This document shows, piece by piece, positions 1 to 45,862 of a stretch of DNA of 64,000 nt. Location of the stretch: contig JBGTDX010000036.1 of assembly GCA_041748075.1 (NCBI GenBank), positions 58,505 to 122,504 on the forward strand. Direction: 5' to 3'. Position numbers and translations under genes: made by a program. The notes under the pieces were generated by a model. It was not told the origin of the DNA, searched no databases, and worked only from the letters and a program-made list of their open reading frames with translations. Positions within the stretch are counted from its first letter, which is position 1; every line of letters begins with the position of its first letter. The stretch comes from Thermoanaerobaculia bacterium (GTDB lineage Bacteria; Acidobacteriota; Thermoanaerobaculia; Gp7-AA8).

Positions 1-1993
1 CCGGTTCGATCAGCTCTCGCACCTGCAACATGTATGGGGTGGCGTGATCCCGTTGCTCATTGCAGCCACTCTCTGGTACTCGAGGCGACCCGGATGGACT
101 GCCGCCGTCTGGGTCGGAGCTGCATTCCTCTTCAACGGACTGATCAACATTCACTGGCTTCTGTTCGGATCGTTCGCAGCGGTAGCGTCGCTGCTGCTTC
201 TTGCCGCGATCCGGGGAACCCTGCTGAAGGTTCGCTTCTGGATACCCGTCGCAACAGCTCTGTTTGTCTCGAGTCTCCTTTTGCTTCCGGTGCTGATTCC
301 GTATGAGAAGATGTCGGAGCATTACGGAGTGCAACGTGGCAAGGGAGAAGCTGGCGTTTATTCGGCGACCTGGACTGACTGGCTTGCGCCAAGCAGCAGG
401 AACAAGCTTTATGGCTCGTTCGAAATCGTGTCAGCCACTCCCGCAGAGCGATTCCTCTTTCCCGGACTTCTGGCTTTCCTGCTCCTTGGTTCGTGCCTCG
501 CCGCAGTAAGGCGAAACGATCTGCCAGCCGGAGGCTATCCTGCATCCAGCCGAGAGCTGAGCCTGCCGAAGGCGCCGCCTGCCTACCTCCGAATTTCTGA
601 GAAACGCATTCTGCGAATCCTCGACGTGCTAACCGTCATTGGCGTGATTCTCACATACGTCGCGATCACGGATTCGATTCGATGGGTCGTGGATGGACAG
701 GAGAGGTTCAGCATGGACTCCCCCGGTACGCCGGGGATGGCGACCGTTCTGTTTCTACTCCTGCGCTGGTGGATCCGCTATCCGTCGTCGTGGAAGGGAG
801 GCTCGATCCGGGAGACGATCGCCCATTCACGATTTCCCGTCGGTGTGTGGGTTGCGTTGCTTCTCGTGGTCATAGGGGTACTGGGATCTCTCGGGATGAA
901 CAGCTTTTTTCATCAGTTCCTTTTCGAGAAAGTCGGTCCCTTTCGAGGACTCAGGGTCCCCGCCCGGTGGGCGATGATCGCCTATACCGGTCTGGCCGTG
1001 CTGGTTGCCACTGGGCTGCTGCCATTTCTCAGGAGGCCGCGGCGGGCCCGCGTCCTGGTGGGAGTTTTCGCGATCACCCTGATGCTCTACGAGCTTCGCG
1101 CTGCACCGATTCTCTGGTACCTCACTCCTTCACAACCCGAAGTGTATGGCTGGCTCGCTGATGTGCCTGTGAGCGGGGCAGTGCTCGAGTTGCCGATCGG
1201 CAGCGAAGCGGTCGATTCACAGCCCTACGTCTGGACGGAAGTCGGCTACGTTCTGGGCAATGCCTATCACCACAAGCCCCTCGTCAACGGCTTTTCCGGC
1301 TTCGAGCCGCCACTGCACCAGAGGATCGCTACGCTGGCCAACGCGGAGCACATCAGTGACGAGCTTTTCGGTCTCCTCGAACAGATCGGAACTTCTTTGA
1401 TCGTCGTCCATGCCGATCGCCTCGGACCCGCCCACGATGCGACGCGTGACTGGCTGGAACGTGGACTCGATTCCGGCCGCCTGGTCTTCCTGCGGCGTTT
1501 TCAGCATGACATGAGCGGCGACTACCTGTTCGCTATCGTTGCCAATGAAAGGAATATCGGACTCCTCCGCGGTGACTGGGAAAGCGACATCGCCGGCCGC
1601 ACGCAGCTCGACAACATGAGGATTTTCCTGGCCGGGGAGGGAAGGACGTACAACGCCGGAGCCTTCGGAACGTTCGATGTACTTCGCAATCACGACGAAT
1701 TGAAAGGTCCTGCTAAAATTCACGGCTGGGTGCTGAGCGCCGACGGCGTCTCGGCAGTCAATCTTCGATTCCAGAACGGCGCTGTCGTGATTCCCACCGA
1801 ACTCGTGCATCGTCAGGATGTGAAGGACGTCTATCCCTGGTATCCGCTCGTTGAGAAGCCGGGATTCCATGTCGAGTTGCCAGGCCGTCCGCCAGGGGTG
1901 AAACGCCAGACAGACCTGCAACTCGAGATCATCGACGATCAGGGAAGGAGCATCAGGTTGGCACCGCTGGCGCTTACCTGGAAGGTTCGTTGA
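1..1993 (+). CDS. Polytopic membrane protein with large C-terminal extracytoplasmic domain (possible GT-C-type glycosyltransferase); 5' end truncated by window edge
   Basis: Reading frame is open from position 2 with no stop, so the gene starts upstream of the window. Multiple hydrophobic TM segments are followed by a ~300 aa soluble C-terminal domain. No family motif recognised with confidence. Confidence 0.5.
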   Translation, partial: RFDQLSHLQHVWGGVIPLLIAATLWYSRRPGWTAAVWVGAAFLFNGLINIHWLLFGSFAAVASLLLLAAIRGTLLKVRFWIPVATALFVSSLLLLPVLIPYEKMSEHYGVQRGKGEAGVYSATWTDWLAPSSRNKLYGSFEIVSATPAERFLFPGLLAFLLLGSCLAAVRRNDLPAGGYPASSRELSLPKAPPAYLRISEKRILRILDVLTVIGVILTYVAITDSIRWVVDGQERFSMDSPGTPGMATVLFLLLRWWIRYPSSWKGGSIRETIAHSRFPVGVWVALLLVVIGVLGSLGMNSFFHQFLFEKVGPFRGLRVPARWAMIAYTGLAVLVATGLLPFLRRPRRARVLVGVFAITLMLYELRAAPILWYLTPSQPEVYGWLADVPVSGAVLELPIGSEAVDSQPYVWTEVGYVLGNAYHHKPLVNGFSGFEPPLHQRIATLANAEHISDELFGLLEQIGTSLIVVHADRLGPAHDATRDWLERGLDSGRLVFLRRFQHDMSGDYLFAIVANERNIGLLRGDWESDIAGRTQLDNMRIFLAGEGRTYNAGAFGTFDVLRNHDELKGPAKIHGWVLSADGVSAVNLRFQNGAVVIPTELVHRQDVKDVYPWYPLVEKPGFHVELPGRPPGVKRQTDLQLEIIDDQGRSIRLAPLALTWKVR

Positions 1994-2006
1994 GCCGCGA
2001 ACGCGC

Positions 2007-3878
2007 CTACTTCGGCATTTTGAACGACACGGCCACGGGCATCCACGTGCGGACGCGCTGGCCGTCCTTCATCGCGGGAGTGAACTGCCATGCACGCACT
2101 GCGGTGATAGCGGATTCATTGAGTCCGATATTGCGTGAATCACCACGCATGATGCGGGCTTCCAGAACCCTGCCCGTTTCTGAAACCAGAGCGCTCACGA
2201 TGACGCTTCCCTCGATCCTCCTGCTTCTCGCCAGCGGCGGATAGACCGGCTCGACGGAACGTACGACCGCCGGAGCCCGGTCGACTTTCACGAGCTCGAT
2301 GAGCTCGCCCTCGCGCGCGAGCGTGACGGGTGGGGGAGTTGCAGCGGGCAGAGGAGTCGCGACGGGGGTGCTGCTCGGGATTGCCTCGCGCCCGACTTCT
2401 TCCCTCAGGCGTTCCTGTTCTTCGGGAGCCGCGGCCACGGAAGTCTGTATGGAGGCAACCGGGGTGGCCGTCGTTCGGCGTTCCGGCGGCTTCACCTCTG
2501 CTTGTCGCTGGCGTCGTAATTCTTCGTCATGCTTCGCCTGCAGTTTGAGCATTTCCTCCTGCAGCCGCGCGTTCACCGCAGCCTCGAAAGCCGCCTCACG
2601 TGCCGCGGTGTCGTCGAGCGGAGGAGGTTCCCCTGTCGTCATGGCCGGCTCGGCGATCACATCCGCGACAGGTAAGGGGACCACGGGAGGTGTCTGCGTC
2701 GTCTCGATCGCTCCGGCCTTTTCCTTCGCGACTGGCGGATCCGCTGGAGCGAACCTGAGGTAGGCCGCGGCGAGTCCAGATGACACGATCAGGAATGCTG
2801 CCGCTGCATACAGAACTCTGTTACGTTTCGAGCTCGATGGGGCGATGGCGCCAGGAGCGGCGGTCGCCGATGGGCGCAAGCTCCCCGCGGCATTGATTCT
2901 CGCCTCCTGTTTCTGCTCCAGCTGTTCCTGTTCGAAGTCCTTTCTCAGCAGGGTATGCAGATAGAATGCGAGATTGAACGTTGTCGGTTCGGAGCTGCCA
3001 TCGTGGAGCAGGTTTGCGATCGCCTCCCGGAGCTCCCCCGCGGAACCGCAACGTGCGGCGGGGTCGGGCCCGAGGCACCGGATCAGAATCGTCTGCAACC
3101 CCGGGTCGAGCGGGTCGCCGGAGAGGCAGCTGCGTCCCTGTTGGATCCGGTCGATGTTCTGTTCAGAAGTGCGGCATTCCGGCAGGACGTCACCGGTCAG
3201 GAGAAGATAGAGTAAAGAGCCCGCCGAGTAGATGTCAGACAGCGGAGTGGGTGCGTCGCCGCGGACCACTTCGGGCGCGAGAAAGGGGCGAACGAGAGAC
3301 GCTGTGCCGTCGACTTCCAGAGCGGCCTGCGTAACGCGCCCCAACTCCTGACCGGTGACGCGAACATCGCCGTCTCCCGTGATCCAAACGAAGTGCGGAA
3401 GCAGGCCGCCGTGAACGAGCTGATTTCCGTCGTACGTCAGATCGTGAGTTGCCTCGAGTGCCAGGGCGATCTTTTCTGTTATGGCCAGCGCCAGGTCTAA
3501 CGGCATCGGAAGCCGACCACCGGCACTATTCTTTGCCCGGTCGGAGATCAGCGCGAGAGACCGGCCACCTTCATGCTCGTGGAGGAGCAGGTTCGTTCCG
3601 TCGGCGGGTACGATGCGCTGGCGCCGTGCGATCGCAGGGCCTCGTAATCCGGGAAGTACGGCCTCTGCTCGCGCCGCAGCTTCGCGCATCGCGGCCGCTG
3701 GGATGTGGGGAAACCGGCGCAGAGCGAAGGGCGCCGCTCCCGGCTCTGACGTCACGTCCAGGGCGCGCCATGTCTCGCAGACCGCGTCCGACTCGAGCTT
3801 CCCGAGGAGCAGGTAGCTGCCGGATTGCTCAATAGTCTTGGCACGCAGGCGCATCAAATGGTCCGGGACGGCTTGCAA
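2007..3878 (-). CDS. Ser/Thr protein kinase-like (degenerate, pseudokinase) domain - TM helix - Pro-rich linker - TonB C-terminal domain fusion protein
   Basis: N-terminal kinase fold recognisable (APE motif LAPEVV, subdomain IX DIYSAGSLLYLLLTG). Catalytic motifs are degenerate: ALR instead of VAIK, HGGLLPHF instead of HRDLKPEN, TGQ instead of DFG. Single TM (VLYAAAAFLIVSSGLAAAYL). C-terminus matches the TonB_C consensus (YPPLARSRRIEGSVIVSALVSETGRV...AVRAWQFTPAMKDGQRVRTW). Confidence 0.7.
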   Translation of the reverse strand: MQAVPDHLMRLRAKTIEQSGSYLLLGKLESDAVCETWRALDVTSEPGAAPFALRRFPHIPAAAMREAAARAEAVLPGLRGPAIARRQRIVPADGTNLLLHEHEGGRSLALISDRAKNSAGGRLPMPLDLALAITEKIALALEATHDLTYDGNQLVHGGLLPHFVWITGDGDVRVTGQELGRVTQAALEVDGTASLVRPFLAPEVVRGDAPTPLSDIYSAGSLLYLLLTGDVLPECRTSEQNIDRIQQGRSCLSGDPLDPGLQTILIRCLGPDPAARCGSAGELREAIANLLHDGSSEPTTFNLAFYLHTLLRKDFEQEQLEQKQEARINAAGSLRPSATAAPGAIAPSSSKRNRVLYAAAAFLIVSSGLAAAYLRFAPADPPVAKEKAGAIETTQTPPVVPLPVADVIAEPAMTTGEPPPLDDTAAREAAFEAAVNARLQEEMLKLQAKHDEELRRQRQAEVKPPERRTTATPVASIQTSVAAAPEEQERLREEVGREAIPSSTPVATPLPAATPPPVTLAREGELIELVKVDRAPAVVRSVEPVYPPLARSRRIEGSVIVSALVSETGRVLEARIMRGDSRNIGLNESAITAVRAWQFTPAMKDGQRVRTWMPVAVSFKMPK

Positions 3879-3922: not shown

Positions 3923-4954
3923 TCACGGTGTCTGTGCAGCCTTCTTTTCCCGTTCGCGCCGTTCGCGCCAATAATCGCGCTGGTAGGTCTGGACCGCACG
4001 ATTGTGCTCGGCAAGCGTCCGTGAGAATACGTGCGAGCCGTCGTTGCGGGAGACGAAGTAGAGGAAGTCCGTATTTGCGGGTGCGGATGCGGCGCGAAGG
4101 GATGCCAGTCCGGGGTTGGCAATGGGTCCGGGCGGAAAGCCCCGCTTCACATAGGTGTTGTAAGGGGAGTCGAGCTTGAGGTCATCCTTTCGGATATTGC
4201 CTTTCCACGTACCGTTGAGCTTCATGGCGTAGATGACCGTCGGATCTGCCTGGAGCGGCATCCTGATCCGAGTGCGGTTGAGATAAACCGAGGCGACGAT
4301 GGGGCGCTCATGCTCGAGGCGTGCTTCTGTCTCGACGATCGAGGCGAGCGTGACGGTCTCGTGCAGGTCGAGACCGGTTTCTATGAATGCGAGCTCGCCA
4401 CCGAACTGTTTGCGGAAATTCTGCACCATGGTCCGGACGATCGCGGCAGGCCTTGTGCCCGGGGCAAGCGTATAGGTATCGGGGAAAAGATATCCCTCGA
4501 GACTCGTAGCCTCCGGATCGAGGTCCCGGACCAGCTCAGCGTCATCGGTCAGATCACGCCATTCGTCCTCGCTCCCGAAGCCCTCTGCGGCCATGATTGC
4601 AGCGATCTGGAAACGGTCGAGTCCCTCGCGAATCGTCACCGAGTGAAGTACGACATCACCCTCGATCAGCTTCTCCAGTACGGCCACCGGAGATGCAGCT
4701 CCCGAGAATTCGTAAACGCCGGCCTTGAGCGAATCGCCACGGCGGATCGTCTTGAGGTAAATCAGAGGGACGAAGTCGTCACGAAGGACCCCTGCGGTCC
4801 GTAGGTGCTCGAGGATTGCACCGCTGTGCAGCCCCTTCCTGACTTCAACCCGCACTTGCGGCTCATCGAAGTTCTTGTAGGGCGTCGTCATCGCGCGCCA
4901 GAGAAAGAAGCCCAGCGCTACGGTGAACAGGACCCCGAAGACTGCGAGGATCAT
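3923..4954 (-). CDS. mltG: Endolytic murein transglycosylase MltG (YceG family)
   Basis: N-terminal TM anchor then YceG-like domain. Lies immediately downstream of ruvX, the conserved yqgF-yceG arrangement. Confidence 0.8.
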   Translation of the reverse strand: MILAVFGVLFTVALGFFLWRAMTTPYKNFDEPQVRVEVRKGLHSGAILEHLRTAGVLRDDFVPLIYLKTIRRGDSLKAGVYEFSGAASPVAVLEKLIEGDVVLHSVTIREGLDRFQIAAIMAAEGFGSEDEWRDLTDDAELVRDLDPEATSLEGYLFPDTYTLAPGTRPAAIVRTMVQNFRKQFGGELAFIETGLDLHETVTLASIVETEARLEHERPIVASVYLNRTRIRMPLQADPTVIYAMKLNGTWKGNIRKDDLKLDSPYNTYVKRGFPPGPIANPGLASLRAASAPANTDFLYFVSRNDGSHVFSRTLAEHNRAVQTYQRDYWRERREREKKAAQTP

Positions 4955-5016: not shown

Positions 5017-5439
5017 CTATGACGGCCTCCGGTGCCTGGCATCCAGGTAAGACTGAAGAATGACGCTGGCCGCTTCCATATCGATCCGTGAGTCGAGTTT
5101 TCGTCCTTTTTTGCCTGCACTTCGAAGGCGGGAGGTCGCTTCGACCGTTGTGAGCGCCTCATCCCAGAGGACGACTTCTTTGCAGGTTCTCTGCCTGAGG
5201 GCTTCTGCAAGCGATTCAAACCGCGCCTCAGTCGCTGACGCATCCATTCGTTTCGACCTGGGAATCCCGAGCACGATGGTCCCGACCTCGAGCTCGTCGG
5301 CGAGTTCGGCGATCGCATCGAGGACGCCCTGAAGATCCCCTCGATTGGCGATCACCGAGTGTGGCGTGGCCAGGACTCCCGATACGCTCACAGCAATTCC
5401 GACGCGCCTGCTTCCCATGTCGACTGCTAGAAATGACAT
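5017..5439 (-). CDS. ruvX: Putative pre-16S rRNA nuclease / Holliday junction resolvase-like RuvX (YqgF)
   Basis: MSFLAVDMGSRRVGIAVS... matches the YqgF N-terminus (LGLDxGxKRIGVAxS). The ORF-track ORF (5017..5772) has a ~110 aa non-homologous N-terminal extension. Start chosen at the internal ATG (5439); 5451 is an alternative. Confidence 0.75.
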   Translation of the reverse strand: MSFLAVDMGSRRVGIAVSVSGVLATPHSVIANRGDLQGVLDAIAELADELEVGTIVLGIPRSKRMDASATEARFESLAEALRQRTCKEVVLWDEALTTVEATSRLRSAGKKGRKLDSRIDMEAASVILQSYLDARHRRPS

Positions 5440-5589
5440 TCCGGCAGCCATTGTAACGGCTGTACAGATCGCGACCGCGGGGACGCTGGCCCTGGCCCTG
5501 GCCGTGGAACCTGCGGTTCGCTTTGACGTTGCGCTGACGCTGCATGGCGATACTCCTCCCATCAATTGCGGCGCGGGCCGCCCGATCCC

Positions 5590-6741
5590 ATGAAAAACTT
5601 CAATCTGGACGCGATTCTCGAAACGATGCTCCGCTCTTCCGACCGGGTGTCGGATCTGAATTTCTCCGTCGGCCGGCCGCCGCAGGTGGAGGTCGATGGA
5701 CAACTCGTTCCGATCACCTTTCCCGGCCTGCCTCAACTGACTCCGTTCCAGACCGAGATCATTGCGCTGCATATGCTGCGGGGTGATCGTGATCTGACCC
5801 GGACTCTCCTCGCTACTGGCTCGGTGGATCTCTCATACGCAATTCCCGGGAAGACGCGCTTCCGTGTGAACATTTTTTCTCAGCGCGGCACATACGCGAT
5901 CGTTCTTCGTGTCATTCCTGTGGGAGTTCCGACGCTCGACGAGCTCGGGGTGGCGCAGGAGCTGAAAAAAGTCTCCAGACTGAAGAACGGTATCGTCCTG
6001 GTCACTGGTCCGACAGGCTCAGGCAAGTCCACGACGCTGGCTGCCATCATCAATCAGATCAACCATGAGTCCGCGTACCACATCGTAACGATCGAGGACC
6101 CCGTCGAGTACCTTCACAGACATGTCAAGTCGACCATCAACCAGCGGGAGGTCGGCGCGGACACCAGGTCCTTTGCTCTGGCTCTTCGTGCGGCTCTCCG
6201 CCAGGCACCCAAGGTAATCCTCATCGGAGAAATGCGTGACGTGGAAACGATCGAGATTGCCATGGAGGCTGCGGAGACGGGGCATCTGGTGCTCTCGACC
6301 CTCCACACGATCGATGCGGCAAAGACAGTCGACCGTATCATCGGAGTCTTTCCCAAGGAGCAGGAGCAGCAGATCCGGACACGTTTCGCGCAATCGTTCC
6401 GGTATGTCATTTCTCAGAAACTCCTTCCAAAGGCCGGTGGAGGGCGGCAGGTGCTCATGGAAGTGCTCAAGTCGAGCATGCGGACACGTGAATACATCAT
6501 GAAGGGTGAGACCGACGGCAGGTCGCTCACCGACGCCATGCACGACGGATCCACCGATGGAATGCAGACGTTCGATGATGAGCTCGAGAGAATGTGGGAG
6601 CAGAAGATCATCAGCCGAGAGACGGCGCTCGCCTATGCGTCGAACCCGACGAACCTGGCGCTCCGCCTCACCTCCGAGTCGGAGGAAGAATCCGGCACCG
6701 AGGAACCTCAATCAGATTCGATGTTATCGATGCTGGAGTAA
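5590..6741 (+). CDS. pilT: Type IV pilus retraction ATPase PilT (PilT/PilU family)
   Basis: Walker A GPTGSGKSTT plus Asp box, Walker B and His box typical of PilT. Start set at the internal ATG (MKNFNLDAILETML...), which aligns with PilT N-termini. Acidic C-terminal tail. Confidence 0.85.
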   Translation: MKNFNLDAILETMLRSSDRVSDLNFSVGRPPQVEVDGQLVPITFPGLPQLTPFQTEIIALHMLRGDRDLTRTLLATGSVDLSYAIPGKTRFRVNIFSQRGTYAIVLRVIPVGVPTLDELGVAQELKKVSRLKNGIVLVTGPTGSGKSTTLAAIINQINHESAYHIVTIEDPVEYLHRHVKSTINQREVGADTRSFALALRAALRQAPKVILIGEMRDVETIEIAMEAAETGHLVLSTLHTIDAAKTVDRIIGVFPKEQEQQIRTRFAQSFRYVISQKLLPKAGGGRQVLMEVLKSSMRTREYIMKGETDGRSLTDAMHDGSTDGMQTFDDELERMWEQKIISRETALAYASNPTNLALRLTSESEEESGTEEPQSDSMLSMLE

Positions 6742-6743
6742 CC

Positions 6744-7310
6744 ATGATCGCGATCACCTGCAATTCCTGCCGCAAGCCGCTTTCCATCGACGAAACGAAG
6801 CTTCCGATGAAGGAAGTGTCCTTCCCATGCCCGATCTGCGCCGAGCGGGTAACGGTCGATCGCCGGACGTTGCAGCCTGCGCGACCGGTTGCCATACCCG
6901 AAGGCGAGCTCGAGATAGTGAGGCCATGTCTGGTCGTGGGCGCTGACGATCCCGCCGTTGCCGAGGCGTGTCATGCCCTCGGATTCCAGCCGCGGCATTT
7001 CGCTTCGGCAGATGCCGCGCGCGAGTATTTCATTCAGGAGTTCCCCGCCCTCGTGGTGCTTCGACCGACCGAAATGACGGCTCCACCGCTTGCTGGCATG
7101 CTGCCCGTGACATCCATGGGCCCGTCCGATCGTCGGCGGGCTTTCATTATCCTGGTGGCGGACAATCTGCGCACATTTGACGGTAACGCCGCATTTCTCT
7201 ATGGAGTGAATCTAGTCGTCGCCACGAAGGATCTGGGCGCAATCAAGCAGATCTTCAGGGAGGCGGATCTGCATCATCGCAGGCTGTACCAGGGAATGAC
7301 GGCAGCGTAG
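6744..7310 (+). CDS. MJ0042-type zinc-ribbon protein with C-terminal CheY-like (pseudo-receiver) fold
   Basis: Starts 2 nt after the pilT stop (taaccATG). CxxC...CPxC zinc ribbon (ITCNSCRK...FPCPICAE) followed by alternating beta-alpha hydrophobic strands (CLVVGADD, ALVVL, FIILVAD, VNLVVATKD) with no obvious phospho-acceptor Asp context. Confidence 0.5.
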   Translation: MIAITCNSCRKPLSIDETKLPMKEVSFPCPICAERVTVDRRTLQPARPVAIPEGELEIVRPCLVVGADDPAVAEACHALGFQPRHFASADAAREYFIQEFPALVVLRPTEMTAPPLAGMLPVTSMGPSDRRRAFIILVADNLRTFDGNAAFLYGVNLVVATKDLGAIKQIFREADLHHRRLYQGMTAA

Positions 7311-7428: not shown

Positions 7429-8025
7429 CTACCGTGGAATCGTCAACTGGATTGGCGGCTCTTGTTCCAACTCCGCGCGATAGGCTTCGAAGCAAGCGCG
7501 GCAGCGAGCTTCGTAGGATGCGTCTCCCACTTCGACCTGCGCATCTCCGCCCGAGAGCCGCTGCGAGTAGTGCGCTGAGCCTCGGCATCGGACGCACACC
7601 GCGTGCATCTTCGAGACTTCCTCTGCGACAGCCAGGAGCGCCGGCATCGGGCCGAAGGGACGGCGCATGTAGTCCTGATCGAGACCCGCTGCAATGACGC
7701 GAATCCCTGCATCCGCGAGCTGCATGCAGACCTCGACGATCCCGTCGTCGAAGAATTGAACCTCGTCGATCCCAACGATCTGAACTCCGACCTCCACGCG
7801 TGTGCGCAGAACTTCGGACGTCGGAACGGAAATCGCCTTGAGGCGCCGATCGTCGCGCGAGACGACCTCTTCCAAGCTGAAGCGGTCATCAACCAGCGGT
7901 TTGAAGACCTGAACTCTCTGGCGGGCGATGACTGACCTGCGGAGTCTCCGAATGAGCTCTTCCGACTTTCCGGAGAACATACCTCCGGCGATGATCTCGA
8001 TCCATCCTCCTCGATAGGTGTCCAA
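7429..8025 (-). CDS. tdk: Thymidine kinase
   Basis: P-loop GxMFSGKSEEL plus C-terminal zinc-binding CxxC pairs characteristic of type II thymidine kinase. Confidence 0.85.
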   Translation of the reverse strand: MDTYRGGWIEIIAGGMFSGKSEELIRRLRRSVIARQRVQVFKPLVDDRFSLEEVVSRDDRRLKAISVPTSEVLRTRVEVGVQIVGIDEVQFFDDGIVEVCMQLADAGIRVIAAGLDQDYMRRPFGPMPALLAVAEEVSKMHAVCVRCRGSAHYSQRLSGGDAQVEVGDASYEARCRACFEAYRAELEQEPPIQLTIPR

Positions 8026-8254: not shown

Positions 8255-9667
8255 CTATGGGATCAGGAGGCGGACTACAACTCGACGGTTGGCCTGGCGT
8301 CCTGCCGCCGTGGTGTTGTCACCGATTGCTTCCGTCGTTCCACGTCCTTCCACGGTGATCCGGGAAGCGTCGATACCGTGACGGCTGACGAGATAATCCC
8401 GGGTTGCTTCGGCGCGCCGGCGATCAAGATCGCGGTTTGAGCCGGTGTTCTCACGGTCGTCGGTATATCCGATGACGATCGCGGTGGCTGCAGGTTCCTG
8501 CTTCATCCGCAGGGCCACGTCGTCGAGGATCGCCTTTGCGATGTTGGTCAGGCGTGCTGACCCCGCATCAAAGCGGAGCTCGTCGGTGCGCAGGTCACGC
8601 GGTGCAGCCGGCGGAACTACTGGCGGCGGCGGCGGCGTGACTGGTGGTGGCGGTGGTGGTGGCGGAAGCGGTGGCGGCGGCGGTGGCGCCACTGCGGCCA
8701 GATGAACCGGAGCATAGTGGAGTCCGACCAGTCCACCGTGCGGGCAGTGGTCGTTGTCGCTGCTCCACATCGTGAGGTTGGAACGAACGGCGGCGCTCAT
8801 GGCCCAGCCGCTCGTACCGAACCAGTGACGGATGCCCGTTACTGCGTAGACGATGTCGTCAGGAGAACGGTCGCCTCCCGTGTGGAAGATTGTGTTGATC
8901 TCGCTGACCCAGTTGGTTGACGGCGCGAAAGCCAGAGGGATGTTCAGGCCGGCGTCTAACCGGAATTCGTCCGATACACTGAAGTCCCCGCCGTGGAAGA
9001 AGTCCAGGCGGTTTGCAGCGGTAGCGTCCCGATCGCCGCGAATCTTGTACGTCCCGGCGAAACTGAACTGGCGGTAGTTCCAGTGCAGCCCCGCTCCGAA
9101 ATCGGTGCTGCCGGTCGAGATTCCGCCGTCATCGTCACCCGTGCCGATGTCCGCGAAGAGCGAGAGTGCCAGTCGCGAGGCGTACGTGTTCGGGTCGAGA
9201 AGTCCGAACTTGGTACCGATGTGGAGGTTGCCGATGCCCGAGTCGTCATACTGACCCTGGAACGGATGACCGTTCACGAAGCCGGCAAAATCGCCTGCGT
9301 TCTGATCGAGCCAGACGTACGGGATCGATGCGACGATCTCCCAGCGGTCGGTGATGCCGTAGCCGATCGAAGCACTCAGACGTGAGTCTTCGATGTCGGC
9401 GTCGACATACGGACGGGCGCTCGGAATCCGCATCGCAAGCGGCGCGGGCGAGGCCAGGTAATCGTAGTTATTGAAGTAGATGCTGAACGACCAGTCGCCC
9501 TGGCGAAGCGTATCACCAGTGATGATGTTGAAGAGTCCGGTCTCACCGCTGGCAGTCGGGGCCACCAGGTTGAGCCGATCCTCATAAGTCAGTGTCTGGG
9601 CCGTGGCACCCGGCACCAGCAAGGCAAAACACAGCATAAACAGCAGAGTTCGTGTCACCTGACGCAA
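8255..9667 (-). CDS. OmpA-family outer membrane protein (N-terminal beta-barrel domain, poly-Pro linker, C-terminal OmpA peptidoglycan-binding domain)
   Basis: TTG start with AGGAGG RBS 5 nt upstream. Signal peptide. ~30-residue poly-proline linker. C-terminal OmpA_C motifs (TDDRENTGSNRDLDRRRAEATRDYL...NRRVVV). Confidence 0.85.
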   Translation of the reverse strand: MRQVTRTLLFMLCFALLVPGATAQTLTYEDRLNLVAPTASGETGLFNIITGDTLRQGDWSFSIYFNNYDYLASPAPLAMRIPSARPYVDADIEDSRLSASIGYGITDRWEIVASIPYVWLDQNAGDFAGFVNGHPFQGQYDDSGIGNLHIGTKFGLLDPNTYASRLALSLFADIGTGDDDGGISTGSTDFGAGLHWNYRQFSFAGTYKIRGDRDATAANRLDFFHGGDFSVSDEFRLDAGLNIPLAFAPSTNWVSEINTIFHTGGDRSPDDIVYAVTGIRHWFGTSGWAMSAAVRSNLTMWSSDNDHCPHGGLVGLHYAPVHLAAVAPPPPPPLPPPPPPPPVTPPPPPVVPPAAPRDLRTDELRFDAGSARLTNIAKAILDDVALRMKQEPAATAIVIGYTDDRENTGSNRDLDRRRAEATRDYLVSRHGIDASRITVEGRGTTEAIGDNTTAAGRQANRRVVVRLLIP

Positions 9668-11900: not shown

Positions 11901-13013
11901 TCAGAACCGCAGAAGCGCCCCGACTCCTTCGTAGTTCAAAAGGGGCGAGGGGCCGGGAACGAGCTCCACCTGGGCGCCTTCCGTTTCGGCCGCCGCAATG
12001 AGTTCTTCGCCGAGGTCGACGCTCCGGACGCTCCTGCCACAGGCAGGGCAGCTGAGCGGAACCTGGTGGCCGATCGTGCTGCAGCTCGTGCACTGCCAGC
12101 CCGCCAGGACCGCGTCGGTATGAAGGAACAGGTGAAGGATGCTACGCATGTTTGCAGCGGCCGTGACCGATTCCGGTCCGAGGGCGCCGCGCTCTTTCTT
12201 TCGGCCGGCCTCTTCCAGGGAGACGAGCCGTTCTCCGCGCGTTCGAACCTGATGCTGTCGGATCAGGGTCAGACAAGCCTCGGTGATTTCACCCTGCTCA
12301 CTCCGTATATCGAGGTGGAGAGTGCCGATGACCCTGTCATCAACGCGCTTTGGAAGAAAGCTGCGGAAGTTGGCCAGGTTGCGCTCCTGCCCGCTGATGA
12401 TCACACACGGAAACCGTTCGCTGTCGATCATCCGTGCGAGAACCTCCGCGACCTCCTTATGATGGCGGTCGATGTGGTCCCTGACGTGTCGCTGCATATT
12501 CGCCTGGGACCAGCCGCCCTGATCGTGCGACCGGGGCGTCTCAGGATGTTCCAGGTCGATTTCGTAAAGAATGCGCCCGAATGCCAGCTCGAATATGCGC
12601 GCGTACTTGGCGTCGACCATCACCAGGGCTGCGGGCGGATACTCCTGCCGCAGCTGGGCGAGCGGTTTGAGATGGGGCCGGTTCCCGATGCTGACATGTG
12701 GCGTCAGCGGAACCGGGAGCTCGATCGGAACGAAGAACTCCTGGGCCGGACAGCAGAACATGGCCAGGCCGCGCGTCGCGGGATCGAGCGACTTCGCGAC
12801 GTACTCTTCGATCTGTAGAGTCGCCCGTTCCACCTCGCGCTTGTGACCGTTGACGCTGAGCTCGTCTCTGACGCGCTTGAGCTCGTCTTTGAGATAGAGC
12901 CGGAGGCGGTCTTCCTGGGCTTCGTCTCCCCTCGTGGTGTCGAGGTAGAAACTGACGAAGGCATCGTCGCTGCCTCCCAGGGCTGCAAGCTGCCGGATCT
13001 GTTCGGTAATCAT
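11901..13013 (-). CDS. eRF1/Pelota-like (baeRF / VLRF1 superfamily) three-domain protein with C-terminal zinc-ribbon insert
   Basis: Length and domain spacing resemble the eRF1/Dom34 N, central and C domains. The central region carries a Gly-Gly-x-x-Gln loop (HDQGGWSQ) where release factors carry GGQ. CTSCSTIGHQVPLSCPACG zinc ribbon. Assignment is from memory of the baeRF families, not from a search. Confidence 0.5.
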   Translation of the reverse strand: MITEQIRQLAALGGSDDAFVSFYLDTTRGDEAQEDRLRLYLKDELKRVRDELSVNGHKREVERATLQIEEYVAKSLDPATRGLAMFCCPAQEFFVPIELPVPLTPHVSIGNRPHLKPLAQLRQEYPPAALVMVDAKYARIFELAFGRILYEIDLEHPETPRSHDQGGWSQANMQRHVRDHIDRHHKEVAEVLARMIDSERFPCVIISGQERNLANFRSFLPKRVDDRVIGTLHLDIRSEQGEITEACLTLIRQHQVRTRGERLVSLEEAGRKKERGALGPESVTAAANMRSILHLFLHTDAVLAGWQCTSCSTIGHQVPLSCPACGRSVRSVDLGEELIAAAETEGAQVELVPGPSPLLNYEGVGALLRF

Positions 13014-18152: not shown

Positions 18153-18322
18153 GGGAGTTCTGAGTTCTGAGTTCTGAGTTCTGAGTGGTAGTTCCGGCGT
18201 TCTGGGTTCTCGGAGCCCGGGATCCTTCCAGGATCTGCACCCTCGAGGAAAGAAATCGTCCGCTGCGCTCAAGCATGACACCACGCTCGTACCACTCAGA
18301 ACTCAGAACTCAGAACTCAATT
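18153..18322 (+). repeat. MITE-like palindromic element with ~35-nt terminal inverted repeats made of GAGTTCT heptamers
   Basis: Left arm gagttctgagttctgagttctgagtggta is the reverse complement of right arm taccactcagaactcagaactcagaactc. ~100-nt core. Sits between tRNA-Gly and the 3' end of the sigma54 regulator gene. Confidence 0.65.
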
Positions 18323-19672
18323 GGGTCGCTCCACCTGAATTCCATATGCATGGAGTTTGCGGTAGAGATTCGAGCGTTCCACCCCGAGTGCGTCGGCGGT
18401 GCGGCTGACGTTGCCGGAGTGCTCGCGAAGGCGGGTGAGGATGAACTCTTTTTCGAACTCTTCCCGCGCTTCGCGCAGGGTCATGTCGGATCGGACAAGG
18501 ACGCGGCTCCCTGGGCGGTCTCCGCCGAGCTCGATTGCGTCCCGCTCGATCGTTTCGCCGGGAACGAGAATCGTGAGACGCTCGATCAGGTTGCGCAGCT
18601 CGCGCACGTTTCCAGGCCACGCATAACCGCGAAGGAGTGCTGCTGCGGACGGAGAGAGTTTCTTCGGTTTTCGCCCGGTCTCTGCAGCGAAGCGGCGAAG
18701 AAAGTGTCCGGCCAGAATGATGACGTCATCGCCGCGGGCGCGCAACGGCGGAACATGAATCGGGATCACATTGAGGCGGAAGTAAAGGTCCTCGCGAAAC
18801 GAGCCGTTCGCGATCTCGACGTCGAGATTCTTGTTCGTGGCGGCGATGACGCGGACATCGGCCGAGATGGTCTGCTGGCCGCCGACTTTCTGAAACTTCT
18901 GTTCCTGGAGCACGCGAAGTACTTTTGCCTGCGTACGGAGGCTCATGTCGCCGATCTCGTCCAGGAAGAGCGTTCCACGGTCCGCGAGCTCGAACTTTCC
19001 CTTCCGATCATCGATTGCGCCGGTGAATGCTCCCTTGCGATGTCCGAAGAGCTCCGACTCGATGAGCTCCTCGGGGATAGCCGCGCAGTTCACATCGACA
19101 AACGGGGCATCGGCTCTTCGGGACTGGCGGTGCAGTGCCCTCGCGACGACTTCCTTTCCGCTGCCATTCTCTCCTGTGATCAGCACGCGGCTGCTGGATG
19201 GAGCCGCGCTCTCGATCTGCTGCTCGAGACGTTTCATTGCTTCGCTCTCTCCGATGAGTATTTCCTCGAGCGACAGATGCTCCCGCAGGTTGCGGACTTC
19301 CTCGCGGAGCTTTCGGTCGGCGAGCGCGTGATCGACTGTCAGCAGGACACGCTCGAGTGAGAGAGGCTTTTCGAGGAAATCGTAGGCGCCGAGACGCGTA
19401 GCCTTCACCGCAGTCTCGACGGTGCCGTGACCGGAGATGAGCACGACCGGAGGAGTTCCTCCGACGCTTTTAAGCCGCTCGAGAACGTCGAGGCCGTCGA
19501 CACCCGGAAGCCAGACATCCAGCAGTACGAGATCGAAGTCCTCCCGCGCGTAGGTGGCAAGTCCTTCTTCCCCCGAATCACACAGCACGGTCTCGTGGTC
19601 TTCGTCGCCGAGAATGCGCGCGAGTGTCGTCCGGATCGCCGGCTCGTCGTCGATGATCAGTATTTTAGCCAT
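18317..19672 (-). CDS. Sigma-54-dependent response regulator (NtrC/NtrX family: REC + AAA+ sigma54-activation + Fis-type HTH)
   Basis: MAKILIIDDEP receiver. GESEAMKRLEQQI...ITGENGSGKEVVARALH Walker A. GAFTGA motif. C-terminal HTH. Start set at the ATG matching the receiver N-terminus; the ORF-track start lies 237 nt upstream. Confidence 0.9.
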   Translation of the reverse strand: MAKILIIDDEPAIRTTLARILGDEDHETVLCDSGEEGLATYAREDFDLVLLDVWLPGVDGLDVLERLKSVGGTPPVVLISGHGTVETAVKATRLGAYDFLEKPLSLERVLLTVDHALADRKLREEVRNLREHLSLEEILIGESEAMKRLEQQIESAAPSSSRVLITGENGSGKEVVARALHRQSRRADAPFVDVNCAAIPEELIESELFGHRKGAFTGAIDDRKGKFELADRGTLFLDEIGDMSLRTQAKVLRVLQEQKFQKVGGQQTISADVRVIAATNKNLDVEIANGSFREDLYFRLNVIPIHVPPLRARGDDVIILAGHFLRRFAAETGRKPKKLSPSAAALLRGYAWPGNVRELRNLIERLTILVPGETIERDAIELGGDRPGSRVLVRSDMTLREAREEFEKEFILTRLREHSGNVSRTADALGVERSNLYRKLHAYGIQVERPN

Positions 19673-19715
19673 GACATGTGTATGCGATTTCTGAGTTGCG
19701 GTTCCTCGAGCCGCC

Positions 19716-21860
19716 TCAAGCAGGAATCTCGATCTCGAAGCGCGTTCCGCGGGGAGCCTTGTCGTGAACCGAGATGCGTCCGTCGTGGTCGTGAACGATT
19801 CGATGAACGATCGCGAGGCCGAGTCCCGTGCCTTCGCGCTTGGTCGAAAAGTAGGGGAGGAAGAGCTTTTCCTTGTCGGCATCGGGGATGCCTCGTCCCG
19901 GGTCTTCAACGGTGATGACCAGAGAGTGTTCCTGGGTAGTCGCGCTCAGGAGAATCTCGCCCTGATCTGTGGCTTCGATCGCATTGTCGATCAGATTGAT
20001 GAGCGCCCGGCGGATCTGCTGCGGGTCGAGGATGACGCGGATCGCCGGATCGCAGCGGACGATCAGCGACACTCCCGGTTTGACGTCGCGATAGAGCCGC
20101 GCGACTTCCTCGAAGATTTCTGTTATTGCCGTCTGTTTGAGGTCGATTGCCGGCATTCGGGCGAAGCGCGAAAACTCGTCGACGAGCCGCTTGAGCTGCG
20201 CGACTTCGGACACGATGGTCTCGCAGCCTTCGGTGACAGCGGCTGCCGTGTCGGGATCGCCATTGCGGAACTTCTTCGCGATGCGTTCGGCCGAGAGCTG
20301 GATCGGCGTGAGAGGGTTTTTGATCTCATGGGCGATTCGCCGGGCCGCTTCGCTCCACGCGGCAAGCTTCTGCGCCTGCACCAGTTCGGTCAGATCTTCG
20401 ATCGCCATCACCCAGCCGCCGCGACCTCCGCTGCCCTGAAGCGGCGCCACGGAGATCTCGAGGTAGCGAAGCTCCCCGCCACGGATCAGCGTCAGTTCGC
20501 GGGTTCTTCCTTCCGTGGGTCGTTCCGTGAGATGTTCGCTGAGAATCGACAGATCTCCAGGAAACGCGACATCGAGAGTGGCGAGCGGCGGTGGTTCGGC
20601 GATCTGAAGCATGTGGAGCGCGGCCTGATTGATGCTGAGCAGCCTGAGGTCTTCGCTGAATGCGAGAATTCCGGTCGACACGCTTTCCAGGACCGTCGAG
20701 AGATAGGCACGCTCCTCGTTTATTTTCCGATTCGCCTGCTGGAGCTCCACGTTCGAATCGGTCAGAGCATCACGCTGCGCTTCGAGCTGTGAAGCCATTC
20801 CGTTGAATGACTCGATCAGCACGCCGAATTCATCCGTAGCCTTCACGCCAATTCGATGGCCGTACTCACCCCGCGCCAGCGTCTGTGTCCCTTCTGCCAG
20901 TGCCTGTACCGGAACCGTGATCCTTCGCGATACGAAGATTGCCGTCCAGAGGACTCCGAACAGGATCGAGAGGGTCACGGTGAGGAACAGCGAGGTCTGT
21001 GATGCTTTCAATGCGGCCCGCTGTGAATTGAGTTGCTGAAAGTTTGCGTATGCGACGATGTTCTCATCGAGCATCCGGCTCAGGCTGTTCGGCAGGAAAA
21101 TGCCCGCGATGGCGACCTGCTCGCCTTCCGTGCCGACTCTAACCGCATACCGGATCCATTTACCGCTGTCGACGACGTCGATCTTGCGCGCATGACCGTT
21201 CGCAAGCACCTCTTCGAAGAATCGGGACGGCGGCTCGGAGATCTCGTGAACGGGAATCTTGGGATCCGCCTGCAACCTCATGATCACGCCGGAATCGTAC
21301 GCGCCGACCAGATCTACGTCGTGGTGTGTCCGGACATGAGCCAGAGCCTGATCGAGAGCGGCGGCTCCGTCCCGCGCGACGATGCTGGCCACTTCGCCGG
21401 CGGCCTTCCCCGCCTGAGCTCCGGCGCGCTCCTGAAGTTCCTGTGCGATCGCTTCGCTGTTCTCGAGAAGCGAGCTTACGGGTGTGTTGAACCAGCGGTC
21501 GATCGAGACCCGTAGCAGATCCGTCGCGACGAAAAACAGGACGCCGATCGGCAACAGTGACGTGACCAGATAGGTGGCCACCAGCTTGGAGCGGAATCGC
21601 GCCCCCAGGATGCCCCGCTGGCGCTCGAGGAGCACCTTGAGAATCGCGCGCAGAAGAACGAAAACGATTCCCAGTATGAGAATCAGATTGATGTTCCAGA
21701 GAACGAACAGAAGCAGACGGCTGCTCAGAGCTTCCGTCGTGAGCTCACGGCCACGCTGTATAACGTAGTAGATCAGGCTCGTGACTGTGATGATCAGAAG
21801 CGGCGCGCCGAATACGACGCGCGGATCCTTGCGATAATCCAGTAGCGATCGGTTCTTCAT
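19716..21860 (-). CDS. Sensor histidine kinase (NtrY-like: TM-HAMP-PAS-HisKA-HATPase)
   Basis: H-box AHEIKNPLTPIQLSAERI. N, G1 and G2 boxes (NLIDNAIEA, DPGRGI, GTGLGLAIV). Lies upstream of, and in the same operon as, the sigma54 regulator. Confidence 0.9.
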   Translation of the reverse strand: MKNRSLLDYRKDPRVVFGAPLLIITVTSLIYYVIQRGRELTTEALSSRLLLFVLWNINLILILGIVFVLLRAILKVLLERQRGILGARFRSKLVATYLVTSLLPIGVLFFVATDLLRVSIDRWFNTPVSSLLENSEAIAQELQERAGAQAGKAAGEVASIVARDGAAALDQALAHVRTHHDVDLVGAYDSGVIMRLQADPKIPVHEISEPPSRFFEEVLANGHARKIDVVDSGKWIRYAVRVGTEGEQVAIAGIFLPNSLSRMLDENIVAYANFQQLNSQRAALKASQTSLFLTVTLSILFGVLWTAIFVSRRITVPVQALAEGTQTLARGEYGHRIGVKATDEFGVLIESFNGMASQLEAQRDALTDSNVELQQANRKINEERAYLSTVLESVSTGILAFSEDLRLLSINQAALHMLQIAEPPPLATLDVAFPGDLSILSEHLTERPTEGRTRELTLIRGGELRYLEISVAPLQGSGGRGGWVMAIEDLTELVQAQKLAAWSEAARRIAHEIKNPLTPIQLSAERIAKKFRNGDPDTAAAVTEGCETIVSEVAQLKRLVDEFSRFARMPAIDLKQTAITEIFEEVARLYRDVKPGVSLIVRCDPAIRVILDPQQIRRALINLIDNAIEATDQGEILLSATTQEHSLVITVEDPGRGIPDADKEKLFLPYFSTKREGTGLGLAIVHRIVHDHDGRISVHDKAPRGTRFEIEIPA

Positions 21861-22399
21861 CGCGCGGTCCCGACGCGGGCCTGCTCCCAGCCGGTCGAGA
21901 TGTTCCAGGGAACGATGTGCAGCAGGTAGCCCTGCATCAGGTCCGCCCGTACACGAACCCGTACCTTTTCAGGTCTACGACCTTCGAGCGGCAGCAGTTG
22001 CGTTTCCGAGATGACCGTCATCTCCCGCTCGAGCGCATCGAATCGTGTGAACACCTCGGTGCGGATCAGCCGTCGGTTCCGGCGGTAGTTCAGCAGGTAC
22101 TCCTGCGTGATCGAGTTGTACGTCGCGATGACCTCGACCGTCGCAGTCGAGATCCGCTGATCGAACCAGTTCGGACGCTTTCTGATGAGCTCGAAGTGGT
22201 AGGTGAATCCCGTGGATACACCACTGCGCAGGGCGTCCAGGATCTCCGGCCGCGAGAAGCCGTTTTCCAGCTGGAAGGTGACGTTCACGTGACTCCCGCC
22301 GGCGGACCCTTTGAGTTGGACGATCCGCGCCTCGCTGTCAGCGCGCAGAGTTCCTGAAAAGAGGCCGGCCGCGAGAAACAGAATCAGAAGACGCCTCAT
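21857..22399 (-). CDS. DUF4390-like periplasmic protein, first gene of the HK/RR operon
   Basis: Signal peptide. 4-nt overlap with the kinase start. DUF4390 proteins typically precede NtrY-type kinases (recalled association). Confidence 0.55.
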   Translation of the reverse strand: MRRLLILFLAAGLFSGTLRADSEARIVQLKGSAGGSHVNVTFQLENGFSRPEILDALRSGVSTGFTYHFELIRKRPNWFDQRISTATVEVIATYNSITQEYLLNYRRNRRLIRTEVFTRFDALEREMTVISETQLLPLEGRRPEKVRVRVRADLMQGYLLHIVPWNISTGWEQARVGTAR

Positions 22400-43064: not shown

Positions 43065-43565
43065 ATGATGTCCCGGAAACAGAAAGGTTTTACCCTCATC
43101 GAGCTGCTCATCGTGGTCGCGATCATCGGCATTCTCGCCGCCATCGCCATCCCGAACCTGCTCACCGCCATGCAGCGCTCCAAGCAGAAACGCACCATGG
43201 CTGACATGCGCGGCATCGCCACCGCATGGGAAGCCCGCGCGGTCGACGAGAACCGTTACAACGCCGCGGGTGTCACGTTCCCCACAGTCACGCCGACGCA
43301 GGCTCAGATGGCTGGCATGCTCTCCCCCACCTACATCAAGACCCTCCCGCCCAATGACGGCTGGAACAACGCGTGGGACTACTACATCGATGCGGCTGTC
43401 GGTTCCACCAGCGCCTCGGCCCAGAACTACTTCATTCGATCCAGGGGCCGGGACAACCTGGCGATTACCGCTCCTGTCGATGGTGCGACGACCAACTTCG
43501 ATTGTGACATCGTCTACACCAACGGCAGCTTCGTGGTCTATCCGGATGGAGTTCAGCAGAACTGA
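43065..43565 (+). CDS. Type IV pilin / pseudopilin-like protein (paralog 1)
   Basis: AGGAGG RBS. Class III signal peptide KG|FTLIELLIVVAIIGILAAIAIP with Glu at position +5. ~165 aa. Confidence 0.8.
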   Translation: MMSRKQKGFTLIELLIVVAIIGILAAIAIPNLLTAMQRSKQKRTMADMRGIATAWEARAVDENRYNAAGVTFPTVTPTQAQMAGMLSPTYIKTLPPNDGWNNAWDYYIDAAVGSTSASAQNYFIRSRGRDNLAITAPVDGATTNFDCDIVYTNGSFVVYPDGVQQN

Positions 43566-43599
43566 ACGGGTGATCTTCAGGTATCGTGAGGTCGGTGAG

Positions 43600-43629
43600 A
43601 GGGCGTCCTGTGGACGCCCTTTCTTTTTG
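43600..43629 (+). terminator. Rho-independent terminator after pilin paralog 1
   Basis: Perfect 9-bp stem agggcgtcc/ggacgccct with tgtg loop, followed by TTCTTTTTG. Confidence 0.8.
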
Positions 43630-43687
43630 TGAGATCGAGCCGGACCCGGCAGGGACGTCCGCGCGTGCCCGTTCAGGAGGAGATTCA

Positions 43688-45798: not shown

Positions 45799-45862
45799 AG
45801 GTTCCCGGAATCCTGAGCCCGCCGGGCCGGACAGGAGATGTTCGACCACTCGAGGTCGCACC

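Follow-up and report, generated by a model that had tools for sequence, protein, structure and literature searches.

The DNA analysed here is a stretch of 64,000 nucleotides (64 kb; hereafter the window) from contig JBGTDX010000036.1 of a Thermoanaerobaculia bacterium, of the phylum Acidobacteriota. This report concerns one gene in it, contained in an uninterrupted open reading frame (ORF) on the minus strand, 2007..3878, the product of which joins a kinase-like domain with substituted catalytic residues to the C-terminal domain of TonB (TonB_C). In the ORF list, the mechanical ORF reaches a TTG at 3878. Translation more probably starts at the ATG at 3854, giving a protein of 615 amino acids (aa), because the nearest homologue, P0001, and other relatives begin there (MRLRAK or MRQRHRK). 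P0001 is 97% identical, derives from a Thermoanaerobaculia metagenome-assembled genome (MAG) and is labelled merely 'TonB family protein'. Residues are numbered throughout from the ATG at 3854. The features of the gene, with the evidence for each, are as follows.

2007..3854, minus strand: whole gene for the pseudokinase-transmembrane-TonB_C protein; 615 aa from the ATG at 3854, stop codon at 2007-2009.
2997..3830, minus strand: predicted cytoplasmic Hanks-type pseudokinase domain, residues ~9-286, both lobes (AlphaFold2 (AF2), Foldseek, motif tables, pairwise alignments).
2880..2984, minus strand: post-kinase juxtamembrane helices, residues 291-325, opening with T-T-F-N-L-A-F-Y-L-H-T-L-L (conservation, AF2).
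2751..2822, minus strand: single transmembrane (TM) helix, residues ~345-368, Ala/Gly/Val-rich, following KRNR, N-in (hydropathy scan, AF2).
2646..2690, minus strand: Pro-flanked, β-prone segment, residues 389-403, PPVVPLPVADVIAEP, similar to the D-box described below but of uncertain significance (post-TM alignment).
2496..2609, minus strand: conserved periplasmic helix, residues 416-453, core AFEAAVNARLQEEMLKLQ (column conservation 0.8-0.9; AF2 confidence, pLDDT, >90).
2019..2252, minus strand: periplasmic TonB_C; Pfam match to residues 535-612, folded over ~520-615, YP motif Y538-P539 (Pfam, TIGR01352, PDB, AF2).

The AF2 model of the full-length protein shows, in order, the kinase fold (pLDDT 90-98), helices at 292-302 and 304-318, the TM helix at 345-367, a disordered stretch, a confident helix at 416-453 and TonB_C at approximately 520-615 (pLDDT 91-98). 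The cytoplasmic part in this model comprises about 345 residues, made up of the folded kinase-like domain and the helices that follow it. An earlier reading of this DNA, made from the sequence only, had proposed the same anatomy, with a pseudokinase in the cytoplasm joined through one TM helix and a spacer to TonB_C in the periplasm, and hidden Markov model searches, hydropathy and the AF2 model all confirm it.

Because the Pfam Pkinase match covers the C-lobe only and, at 27.5 bits, lies under the gathering score of 31.7, assignment of the N-terminal domain to the kinases required structure. The NCBIfam kinase matches to the protein are partial and generic only; one of them, a partial hit of 55.6 bits to the model for the defence kinase MAD6 (cut-off 460), was set aside as generic kinase similarity. 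An AF2 model of residues 1-325, built from 30 family sequences, has a pLDDT of 93.4 and a pTM of 0.92. When this model was compared with the PDB using Foldseek, the top matches were PknB, PknI and PknA of Mycobacterium tuberculosis and Stk1 of Staphylococcus aureus, with E values of approximately 1e-12 and target TM-scores of no more than 0.80; StkP and PknB are among the best PDB matches of the domain. As modelled, then, the N-terminal domain is a genuine two-lobed Hanks-type kinase fold.

Catalytic positions were read from a family alignment that included real kinases, and from pairwise HMMER alignments to the active kinases StkP and PknB. In the window protein, Arg replaces the VAIK Lys, HRD has become HGG, the Lys at +2 is Leu, the catalytic Asn at +5 is Phe, DFG has become GQE and the Gly-rich loop contains zero glycines. 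The APE Glu, the subdomain IX Asp and the subdomain XI Arg are retained. The sequence-only reading had already described a kinase-like fold with the VAIK Lys, the HRD Asp and the DFG Asp substituted and with APE and subdomain IX intact, and each of these statements holds. It had also named two findings that would have told against it, a fold other than that of a kinase and catalytic residues that were merely shifted; AF2 and Foldseek returned a kinase fold, and in the alignments to StkP and PknB the residues are replaced.

Motif counts were extended to the 141 family members carrying TonB_C. The HRD Asp and the DFG Asp are each present in 0/141 and the β3 (VAIK) Lys in 2/141. The HRD His and the Gly that follows it are invariant in the family, giving H-G-x at the HRD position, and the β3 motif reads ALRRF or VLLRV. 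The residue at the position of the HRD Asp differs among subfamilies (G, A, F or L), and such variable replacement disfavours a shifted catalytic mechanism. Judged from these alignments, all of the residues needed for ATP binding and phosphotransfer are lost, family-wide.

The family is a large one. A word-indexed search returned approximately 45 clusters with the same layout, and in a profile search of 1.84 billion representatives the best 150 (50% clustering) all had E<1e-74. About 100 of these 150 are 600-790 aa long, with a kinase-like domain, the TTFNLAF motif, one TM helix and TonB_C. Relatives are encoded in at least 355 species-representative genomes (GTDB contigs, one genome per species); the best 80 of these are all MAGs of the Thermoanaerobaculia, Acidobacteriota, and are 35-42% identical to the N-terminal domain of the window protein. 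Conservation, expressed as the mean top-residue frequency across 77 Thermoanaerobaculia genes, was 0.91 for the T-T-F-N-L-A-F-Y-L motif, 0.70 for the C-lobe, 0.65 for the N-lobe, 0.63 for TonB_C, 0.53 for the TM helix and 0.50 for the linker. It is apparent from the values for the two lobes that the dead kinase domain is constrained at least as much as TonB_C. The pattern of conservation indicates that purifying selection acts on the family in at least 355 species of Acidobacteriota. The architecture had been called unusual in the sequence-only reading; it does differ from that of canonical TonB, but with this number of species genomes, and with two-thirds or so of the best 150 representatives sharing it, it is not rare.

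Databases label every member of the family 'TonB family protein', and the pairing of PF00069 with PF03544 is present in precomputed annotations. No description was found in the literature of an architecture combining a pseudokinase with TonB, or a TonB C-terminal domain with a kinase domain. Two recent surveys sort the bacterial Ser/Thr kinases into 42 families, 7 of them pseudokinase families, and the word 'TonB' is absent from both of these surveys of bacterial pseudokinases; a 2025 study of TonB/TolA evolution (PMC12204202) does not mention kinases. To judge from the literature found, this is a large, unstudied family, and the combination of domains has not been described previously.

The most conserved motif of the family is the almost invariant post-kinase helix, TTFNLAFYLHTLL. 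F293, L295, A296, F297 and L302 are invariant in both family alignments (A1 and A2), and the helices at 292-302 and 304-318 are modelled with a pLDDT of approximately 94. The hydropathy scan detected one hydrophobic segment only in the protein, corresponding to the AF2 helix at 345-367 and to the one TM segment noted earlier; the KRNR ahead of it is consistent with an N-in topology. Between the TM helix and TonB_C lies a linker of ~150 aa in the window protein and of ~180 aa (median) in the family. The Pro-flanked segment in this linker, situated 25-35 residues past the TM helix, has the clade consensus PPxISxPIVAAAP and recalls QPISVTMVTP of Escherichia coli; it is moderately conserved in the close clade, missing in distant subfamilies and disordered in the AF2 model. 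The helix at 416-453, with the pattern KAFExAVxxKLQEEMxKLQ, is situated between the disordered post-TM stretch and TonB_C, and distant subfamilies have helical A/E/K-rich linkers. The 'Pro-rich spacer' of the sequence-only reading was therefore only half of the description: the linker is partly Pro-rich, but by alignment and AF2 it also holds this conserved predicted helix.

The C-terminal domain matches TonB_C of Pfam (PF03544) with 70.4 bits (E=1.8e-19) over profile positions 2-78 of 79, and TIGR01352 (tonB_Cterm, NCBIfam) with 54.5 bits. Its PDB matches include TonB2 (2k9k, E=2.8e-7) and E. coli TonB. The invariant residues are P539, E559, G561, W604 and F611, and residues 520-615 have a pLDDT of 91-98. 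By these measures, the domain is canonical in fold and in sequence signature, and the earlier designation as a textbook TonB_C was apt; binding by strand addition is a prediction.

Motor-coupled TonB and TolA proteins are characterized by an SHLS motif in the TM helix, a motor box or D-box, and a linker that spans the periplasm (PMC12204202, PMC10907165). SHLS denotes Ser-x3-His-x6-Leu-x3-Ser, the essential His of which contacts ExbB or TolQ, as observed by cryo-electron microscopy; the motor box or D-box is a β-strand in the disordered stretch past the TM helix that is captured by the ExbD or TolR dimer, and has been reported in all TonBs and in 93% of TolAs (PMC10907165, PMC12204202). TonB proteins 'in general lack a cytoplasmic domain' (PMC8262864). 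The globular C-terminal domain, which in such proteins binds by β-strand addition, and the spanning linker are present in the family studied here. SHLS is not, in that a His or SxxxH was found in 0/141 family TM helices, and in place of a short stub approximately 345 folded residues precede the TM helix. The sequence-only reading was thus right that the layout is unlike that of canonical TonB.

The genes that would be expected to accompany a motor-coupled protein were sought as well. No ExbB/MotA, ExbD, Plug/TonB_dep_Rec or Tol-Pal family was detected in the window (47 selected ORFs and the ORFs in the gaps), which bears out the earlier statement that it contains no ExbB/ExbD or TonB-dependent receptor gene. 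Motor and receptor genes were likewise absent from six Pfam-annotated contexts of relatives and from the 106 ORFs downstream at 58 loci. Ordinary short tonB genes, sought in order to check for SHLS in the lineage's own TonBs, were not found in 1.1 Mb of loci.

A large sister family with intact kinase motifs occurs in the same class. Two of its members, P0040 and P0043, match Pkinase with 130-136 bits and contain VAIK, HRDVSPQN, DFG and SPE. A search with P0043 returned at least 120 clusters, all with E<1e-212, annotated 'TonB family protein [Thermoanaerobaculia bacterium]' and of approximately 1000-1100 aa. The members (P0040, P0043 and P0215-P0333; loci L005:2118-5354, L088:8001-11183 and L089:8001-11252) consist of a receiver-like N-terminus, in some cases with a receiver-domain match, a long Pro-rich spacer, the kinase, a TM helix, a coiled coil and TonB_C. 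HRD[VI]SPQN, in which Ser stands where the catalytic loop usually has Lys, and DFG are present in 120/121 sister proteins, and a His occurs in 3/120 sister TM helices. Many sister proteins have a post-kinase helix, DLAAYI[HQR], that resembles FNLAFYLH. Their TonB_C is 40-44% identical to that of the window protein, and their kinase aligns to window residues 9-306 at 26-29% identity. Taken together, the intact sister and the dead family establish that the layout of kinase fold, TM helix and TonB_C exists both live and dead in one bacterial class.

The sister genes have a conserved neighbourhood of their own, always with PatA_N, RuvC and YebC genes divergent and a 77-aa gene, AccD and FolC after the gene. 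In many Proteobacteria, yebC-ruvC-ruvAB adjoins tolQRA-tolB-pal. The yebC-ruvC position of the sister and the helical A/E/K-rich linkers of the distant subfamilies are reminiscent of TolA.

The gene in the window is the third of a same-strand array, ruvX-mltG-pseudokinase/TonB_C. The array and the genes divergent from it are as follows.

3923..4954, minus strand: mltG, a YceG-like endolytic transglycosylase gene (Pfam YceG, 269.8 bits), directly upstream, 68 nt from the ATG.
5017..5451, minus strand: ruvX (YqgF), first gene of the array (Pfam RuvX, 107 bits, ORF residues 112-244).
5566-6741, plus strand: PilT-like T2SSE ATPase gene, divergent from ruvX, syntenic in 63-67/80 loci.
6594-7310, plus strand: Zn-ribbon protein gene overlapping the PilT-like gene, syntenic in 63-67/80 loci.

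The mechanical ruvX ORF, 5017..5772, is over-extended by about 110 codons at the N-terminus; as the RuvX domain begins at ORF residue 112, the real start would be near 5451. Synteny was counted at the loci of the best 80 of the at least 355 genomes, all from Thermoanaerobaculia. The gene stands directly downstream of ruvX-mltG on the same strand in 71/80 loci, and follows mltG immediately in L001 and L006 also. Eight of the nine loci without the array have <600 nt of upstream sequence, and L081 alone has room but no mltG. No terminator-like site was detected on the minus strand in the 68-nt gap between mltG and the gene, and mltG is a probable operon partner. The PilT-like ATPase and Zn-ribbon genes are divergent upstream in the loci that have them, and the order in the window is the same. 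Across loci, identity is ~60% for MltG, ~78% for the PilT-like protein and 32-40% for the pseudokinase/TonB_C protein, which therefore evolves faster than its neighbours. Genes for a thymidine kinase (7429-8025) and an OmpA-family protein (8255-9667) come next in the window, as they do in some other loci.

Distant subfamilies are situated elsewhere, either beside an LpoB/CsgG-like lipoprotein gene or after four small genes, one of them T2SSM/PilO-like. The latter arrangement, with the four small conserved genes ahead of the family gene, was observed at L004:4257-6542 and L087:2143-4470. The T2SSM/PilO-like match (30 bits) is above the gathering score, and may be a sign of an assembly akin to a pilus or secretion system. 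In L087, the four small genes are separated from the family gene by a 561-aa gene of the opposite strand. L004 also encodes (222-2018, minus strand) a 598-aa protein with a signal-peptide-like N-terminus, two TonB_C matches, of which the best is N-terminal (residues 43-118), and a weak TolA C-terminal match.

On its other side, the window gene converges with a gene at 44..1993 (plus strand); only 13 nt separate the stops of 44..1993 and 2007..3854, a gap in which no terminator-like structure was detected. The 44..1993 gene has no detectable homology to the ~620-aa convergent neighbour that recurs in other Thermoanaerobaculia loci. It is one of several genes for large polytopic membrane proteins that are unusually concentrated in the window (29298-31586, minus strand; 33921-37180, 38237-40627, 45782-47989 and 44-1993, plus strand), for which Pfam matches were absent or weakly YfhO-like. 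Among these genes are a GT2 glycosyltransferase gene (37222-38067), genes for M20 peptidases (41327-42721 and 44392-45798) and, side by side, two pilin-like genes that have N-methylation motifs (43065-43565 and 43586-44194).

Elsewhere in the window, 11901-13013 (minus strand) encodes an archaeo-eukaryotic release-factor-like protein (baeRF family 10, 98 bits) with a Cys-rich C-terminal segment, and the same family occurs in the syntenic MAG locus L006. A gene for an NtrC-type sigma-54 response regulator (18317-19909, minus strand) comes directly after one for a HAMP-PAS histidine kinase (19716-21860, minus strand), upstream of which is a DUF4390 gene (21857-22399). The opposite-strand ORF 18185-19360, which overlaps the regulator gene, was rejected as spurious.

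The reading favoured here, to which a probability of about 0.45 is assigned, is that the protein is a bitopic inner-membrane receptor-type Hanks pseudokinase with a TonB_C ectodomain, working as a non-enzymatic trans-envelope adaptor. Receptor-type Hanks (pseudo)kinase with TonB_C seems a more apt description of it than TonB with an extra domain, because SHLS or a His is found in 0/141 TM helices and because the sister with an intact kinase has the same layout. The most economical reading of TonB_C, by analogy, is that it would serve as a periplasmic binding domain, as PASTA does in PknB and StkP. On this reading, the protein would not transduce proton-motive force as TonB does. TonB_C would dock by β-strand addition on an exposed strand of a putative outer-membrane or periplasmic partner; by way of the TM helix and then the conserved juxtamembrane helix, occupancy or oligomeric state would reach the pseudokinase domain; and that domain would offer a docking or allosteric surface to a putative cytoplasmic partner. 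The most economical candidate for this partner would be the receiver-kinase-TM-TonB_C paralogue of the same class, or another Hanks kinase, of which, by the usual kinase/pseudokinase logic, the dead protein may be the substrate, scaffold or allosteric regulator. Its constant position beside mltG, among housekeeping genes, points to a constitutive task in building or maintaining the envelope and away from the uptake of a specific nutrient. That the engagement of outer-membrane receptors might be coupled to a cytoplasmic partner, as the sequence-only reading suggested, is plausible; the only conserved genomic link, though, is to ruvX-mltG, and not to receptors or motors.

Several observations weigh against this interpretation. 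The negative results for exbBD and tolQR are confined to the neighbourhoods examined, and the moderately conserved D-box-like strand past the TM helix in the close clade would suit motor coupling. The N-terminal domain of the window protein is not clearly nearer to the sister kinase than to generic kinases (median 66 vs 54 bits); with generic kinases scoring almost as high, descent of the whole architecture from one ancestor of both families is plausible, not proven. The active paralogue is absent from the window, and a comparison of NCBI accessions gave no match that would place it together with the pseudokinase in one genome. Finally, the ruvX-mltG linkage is missing in distant subfamilies, and so may be lineage-specific synteny without functional meaning.

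The main rival explanation is that the protein is a motor-coupled force transducer, i.e. a TonB/TolA paralogue driven by a 5:2 motor of the ExbBD, TolQR or AglRQS kind, the genes of which would lie elsewhere, with the pseudokinase as a regulatory or localisation module, like the ZnR/GYF domains of GltJ. The canonical TonB_C, a periplasm-spanning linker of the right length (median ~180 aa) and the resemblance of the Pro-flanked segment to a D-box are what such a transducer would present. tonB genes are, moreover, often unlinked to exbBD. The precedent of GltJ also speaks for it (PMC11135422). However, the TM helices lack His and SHLS in every one of the 141 members and are weakly conserved in sequence (0.53), the D-box-like segment is of moderate conservation and does not extend to distant subfamilies, the examined neighbourhoods contain no motor gene, and the AgmX/PglI C-terminal model, NF033768, scores 24.9 bits on the window protein against a cut-off of 40; a force transducer is therefore considered unlikely, if still a serious competitor. 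A different role, also rather improbable, is that of a scaffold for cell-wall growth specific to MltG, in which the periplasmic helix and TonB_C would position MltG and the peptidoglycan-synthesis machinery relative to the outer membrane or the peptidoglycan while the pseudokinase docks cytoplasmic regulators, in analogy with mycobacterial MviN/MurJ. The order ruvX-mltG-gene persists in 71/80 loci at 32-40% identity of the protein (MltG ~60%), the 68-nt gap is without a terminator-like site, SjdR provides a TonB-like protein with a role at the peptidoglycan or septum (PMC8262864), and the MviN pseudokinase is catalogued as ActPs3 in the bacterial kinase atlas. Distant subfamilies, on the other hand, are not beside mltG, and no literature was found that ties TonB domains to MltG. 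The pair ruvX-mltG is widespread on its own, so the third gene may be a passenger, which also counts against such a scaffold.

The remaining explanations deny that the kinase domain is dead, or that the gene is sound. A cryptically active kinase using shifted or non-canonical catalytic residues has a precedent in the WNK kinases, with their displaced lysine, and the complete fold, the invariant HRD His, the retained APE Glu and subdomain XI Arg, and the Arg at the β3 Lys position in most members could be cited in its favour. But the Gly-loop, the β3 Lys, the catalytic Asp and Asn and the metal-binding Asp are jointly lost in essentially every member, the replacements are Gly or hydrophobic residues that vary by subfamily, the catalytic loop is without any conserved acidic residue and the pairwise alignments agree independently on the losses, so that residual catalysis is very improbable. 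The sub-threshold, C-lobe-only Pkinase match might alternatively suggest that the gene is decaying, or that assembly or annotation has joined a kinase fragment to tonB. Against this stand the single unbroken ORF, the same architecture and length across hundreds of independent assemblies, strong column conservation and confident fold predictions; decay or fusion has next to no probability, and was rejected as already refuted by the conservation data.

A bolder proposal, for which the odds are poor at present, extends the receptor-type reading to a kinase/pseudokinase pair. In it, two TonB_C-bearing proteins of the Thermoanaerobaculia would signal from the outer membrane to the cytoplasm independently of a motor: TonB_C would read the exposure of TonB-box-like strands on outer-membrane proteins (a sign of ligand-loaded receptors or assembly intermediates), the output would be Ser/Thr phosphorylation in the cytoplasm, and the pseudokinase, as allosteric partner or substrate of the active paralogue, would link the signal to the termination of peptidoglycan strands by MltG. 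TonB_C is normally read as part of an energy transducer for outer-membrane uptake. The family described here and its intact sister present it as a putative docking domain on receptor-type Hanks (pseudo)kinases, without the motor-binding signature, in an abundant soil phylum. If the favoured reading is true, the annotation of TonB paralogues in Acidobacteriota would need correction; an eighth, diderm-specific family would be added to the seven catalogued bacterial pseudokinase families; and it would become tractable to test how events at the outer membrane or cell wall are made known to Ser/Thr signalling in the cytoplasm with neither a sigma/anti-sigma pair nor a proton-driven motor.

It is of interest, finally, to compare the protein with known systems. 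With TonB and TolA (E. coli TonB, Vibrio TonB2) it shares a YP-motif TonB_C that aligns with solved TonB C-terminal domains, one TM helix in N-in orientation, a long periplasmic linker of Pro-rich and helical character after it and, possibly, a D-box-like strand. It differs from them in its 345-residue folded cytoplasmic domain, where they have a short stub, in the absence of SHLS from all 141 members, and in the lack of exbB, exbD, tolQR and receptor genes in the contexts examined. The membrane pseudokinases (MviN/MurJ ActPs3, GLW, EssB/YukC) likewise present a non-catalytic kinase fold, as a scaffold or docking site, on the cytoplasmic face; none of them carries TonB_C, and they differ also in phylum and motif signature. 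The role of EssB and the recruitment of FhaA by MviN are precedents for scaffolding and docking. In the bacterial kinase atlas, the MviN pseudokinase is family ActPs3, and the GLW family, mainly of Proteobacteria, has GLW for HRD, a poly-Leu β3 motif (LLLL/W) and a TM segment C-terminal to the kinase. Membership in the GLW family was considered and rejected on this motif description: the proteins studied here have H-G-x at HRD and ALRRF/VLLRV at β3, and are from Acidobacteriota, with only the C-terminal TM segment in common.

The sister family, of the same class and also uncharacterised, arranges its parts as the window protein does, from the kinase fold and post-kinase helix through a His-less TM helix and a helical linker to TonB_C; unlike the window protein, it keeps its catalytic motifs and has an extra receiver-like domain, a long Pro-rich spacer and another neighbourhood. 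The receptor-type Hanks kinases PknB and StkP, the best structural and sequence matches of the N-terminal domain, resemble the window protein in topology, the kinase being followed by a juxtamembrane segment, a single TM helix and a binding domain outside the cytoplasm, and kinase-TM-ectodomain is the commonest layout of bacterial Ser/Thr kinases (bacterial kinase atlas). Their ectodomain is PASTA rather than TonB_C, whereas here the kinase is dead, the host is diderm and the ectodomain is periplasmic. In GltJ (AgmX)/GltG of the Myxococcus Agl-Glt gliding system, a cytosolic effector domain, one TM helix, a flexible linker and TonB-C act as a switch and connect regulation in the cytoplasm with a complex that spans the envelope (PMC11135422), and the overall logic of the arrangement is the same here. 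The cytosolic module of GltJ is ZnR plus GYF in place of a pseudokinase, and its phylum and genomic context are different. Assignment to the GltJ/AgmX type was accordingly rejected, given the kinase-like cytosolic domain, the sub-cut-off NF033768 score and the absence of Agl/Glt-like genes from the window. In architecture, nevertheless, GltJ is the closest precedent for the protein described here.

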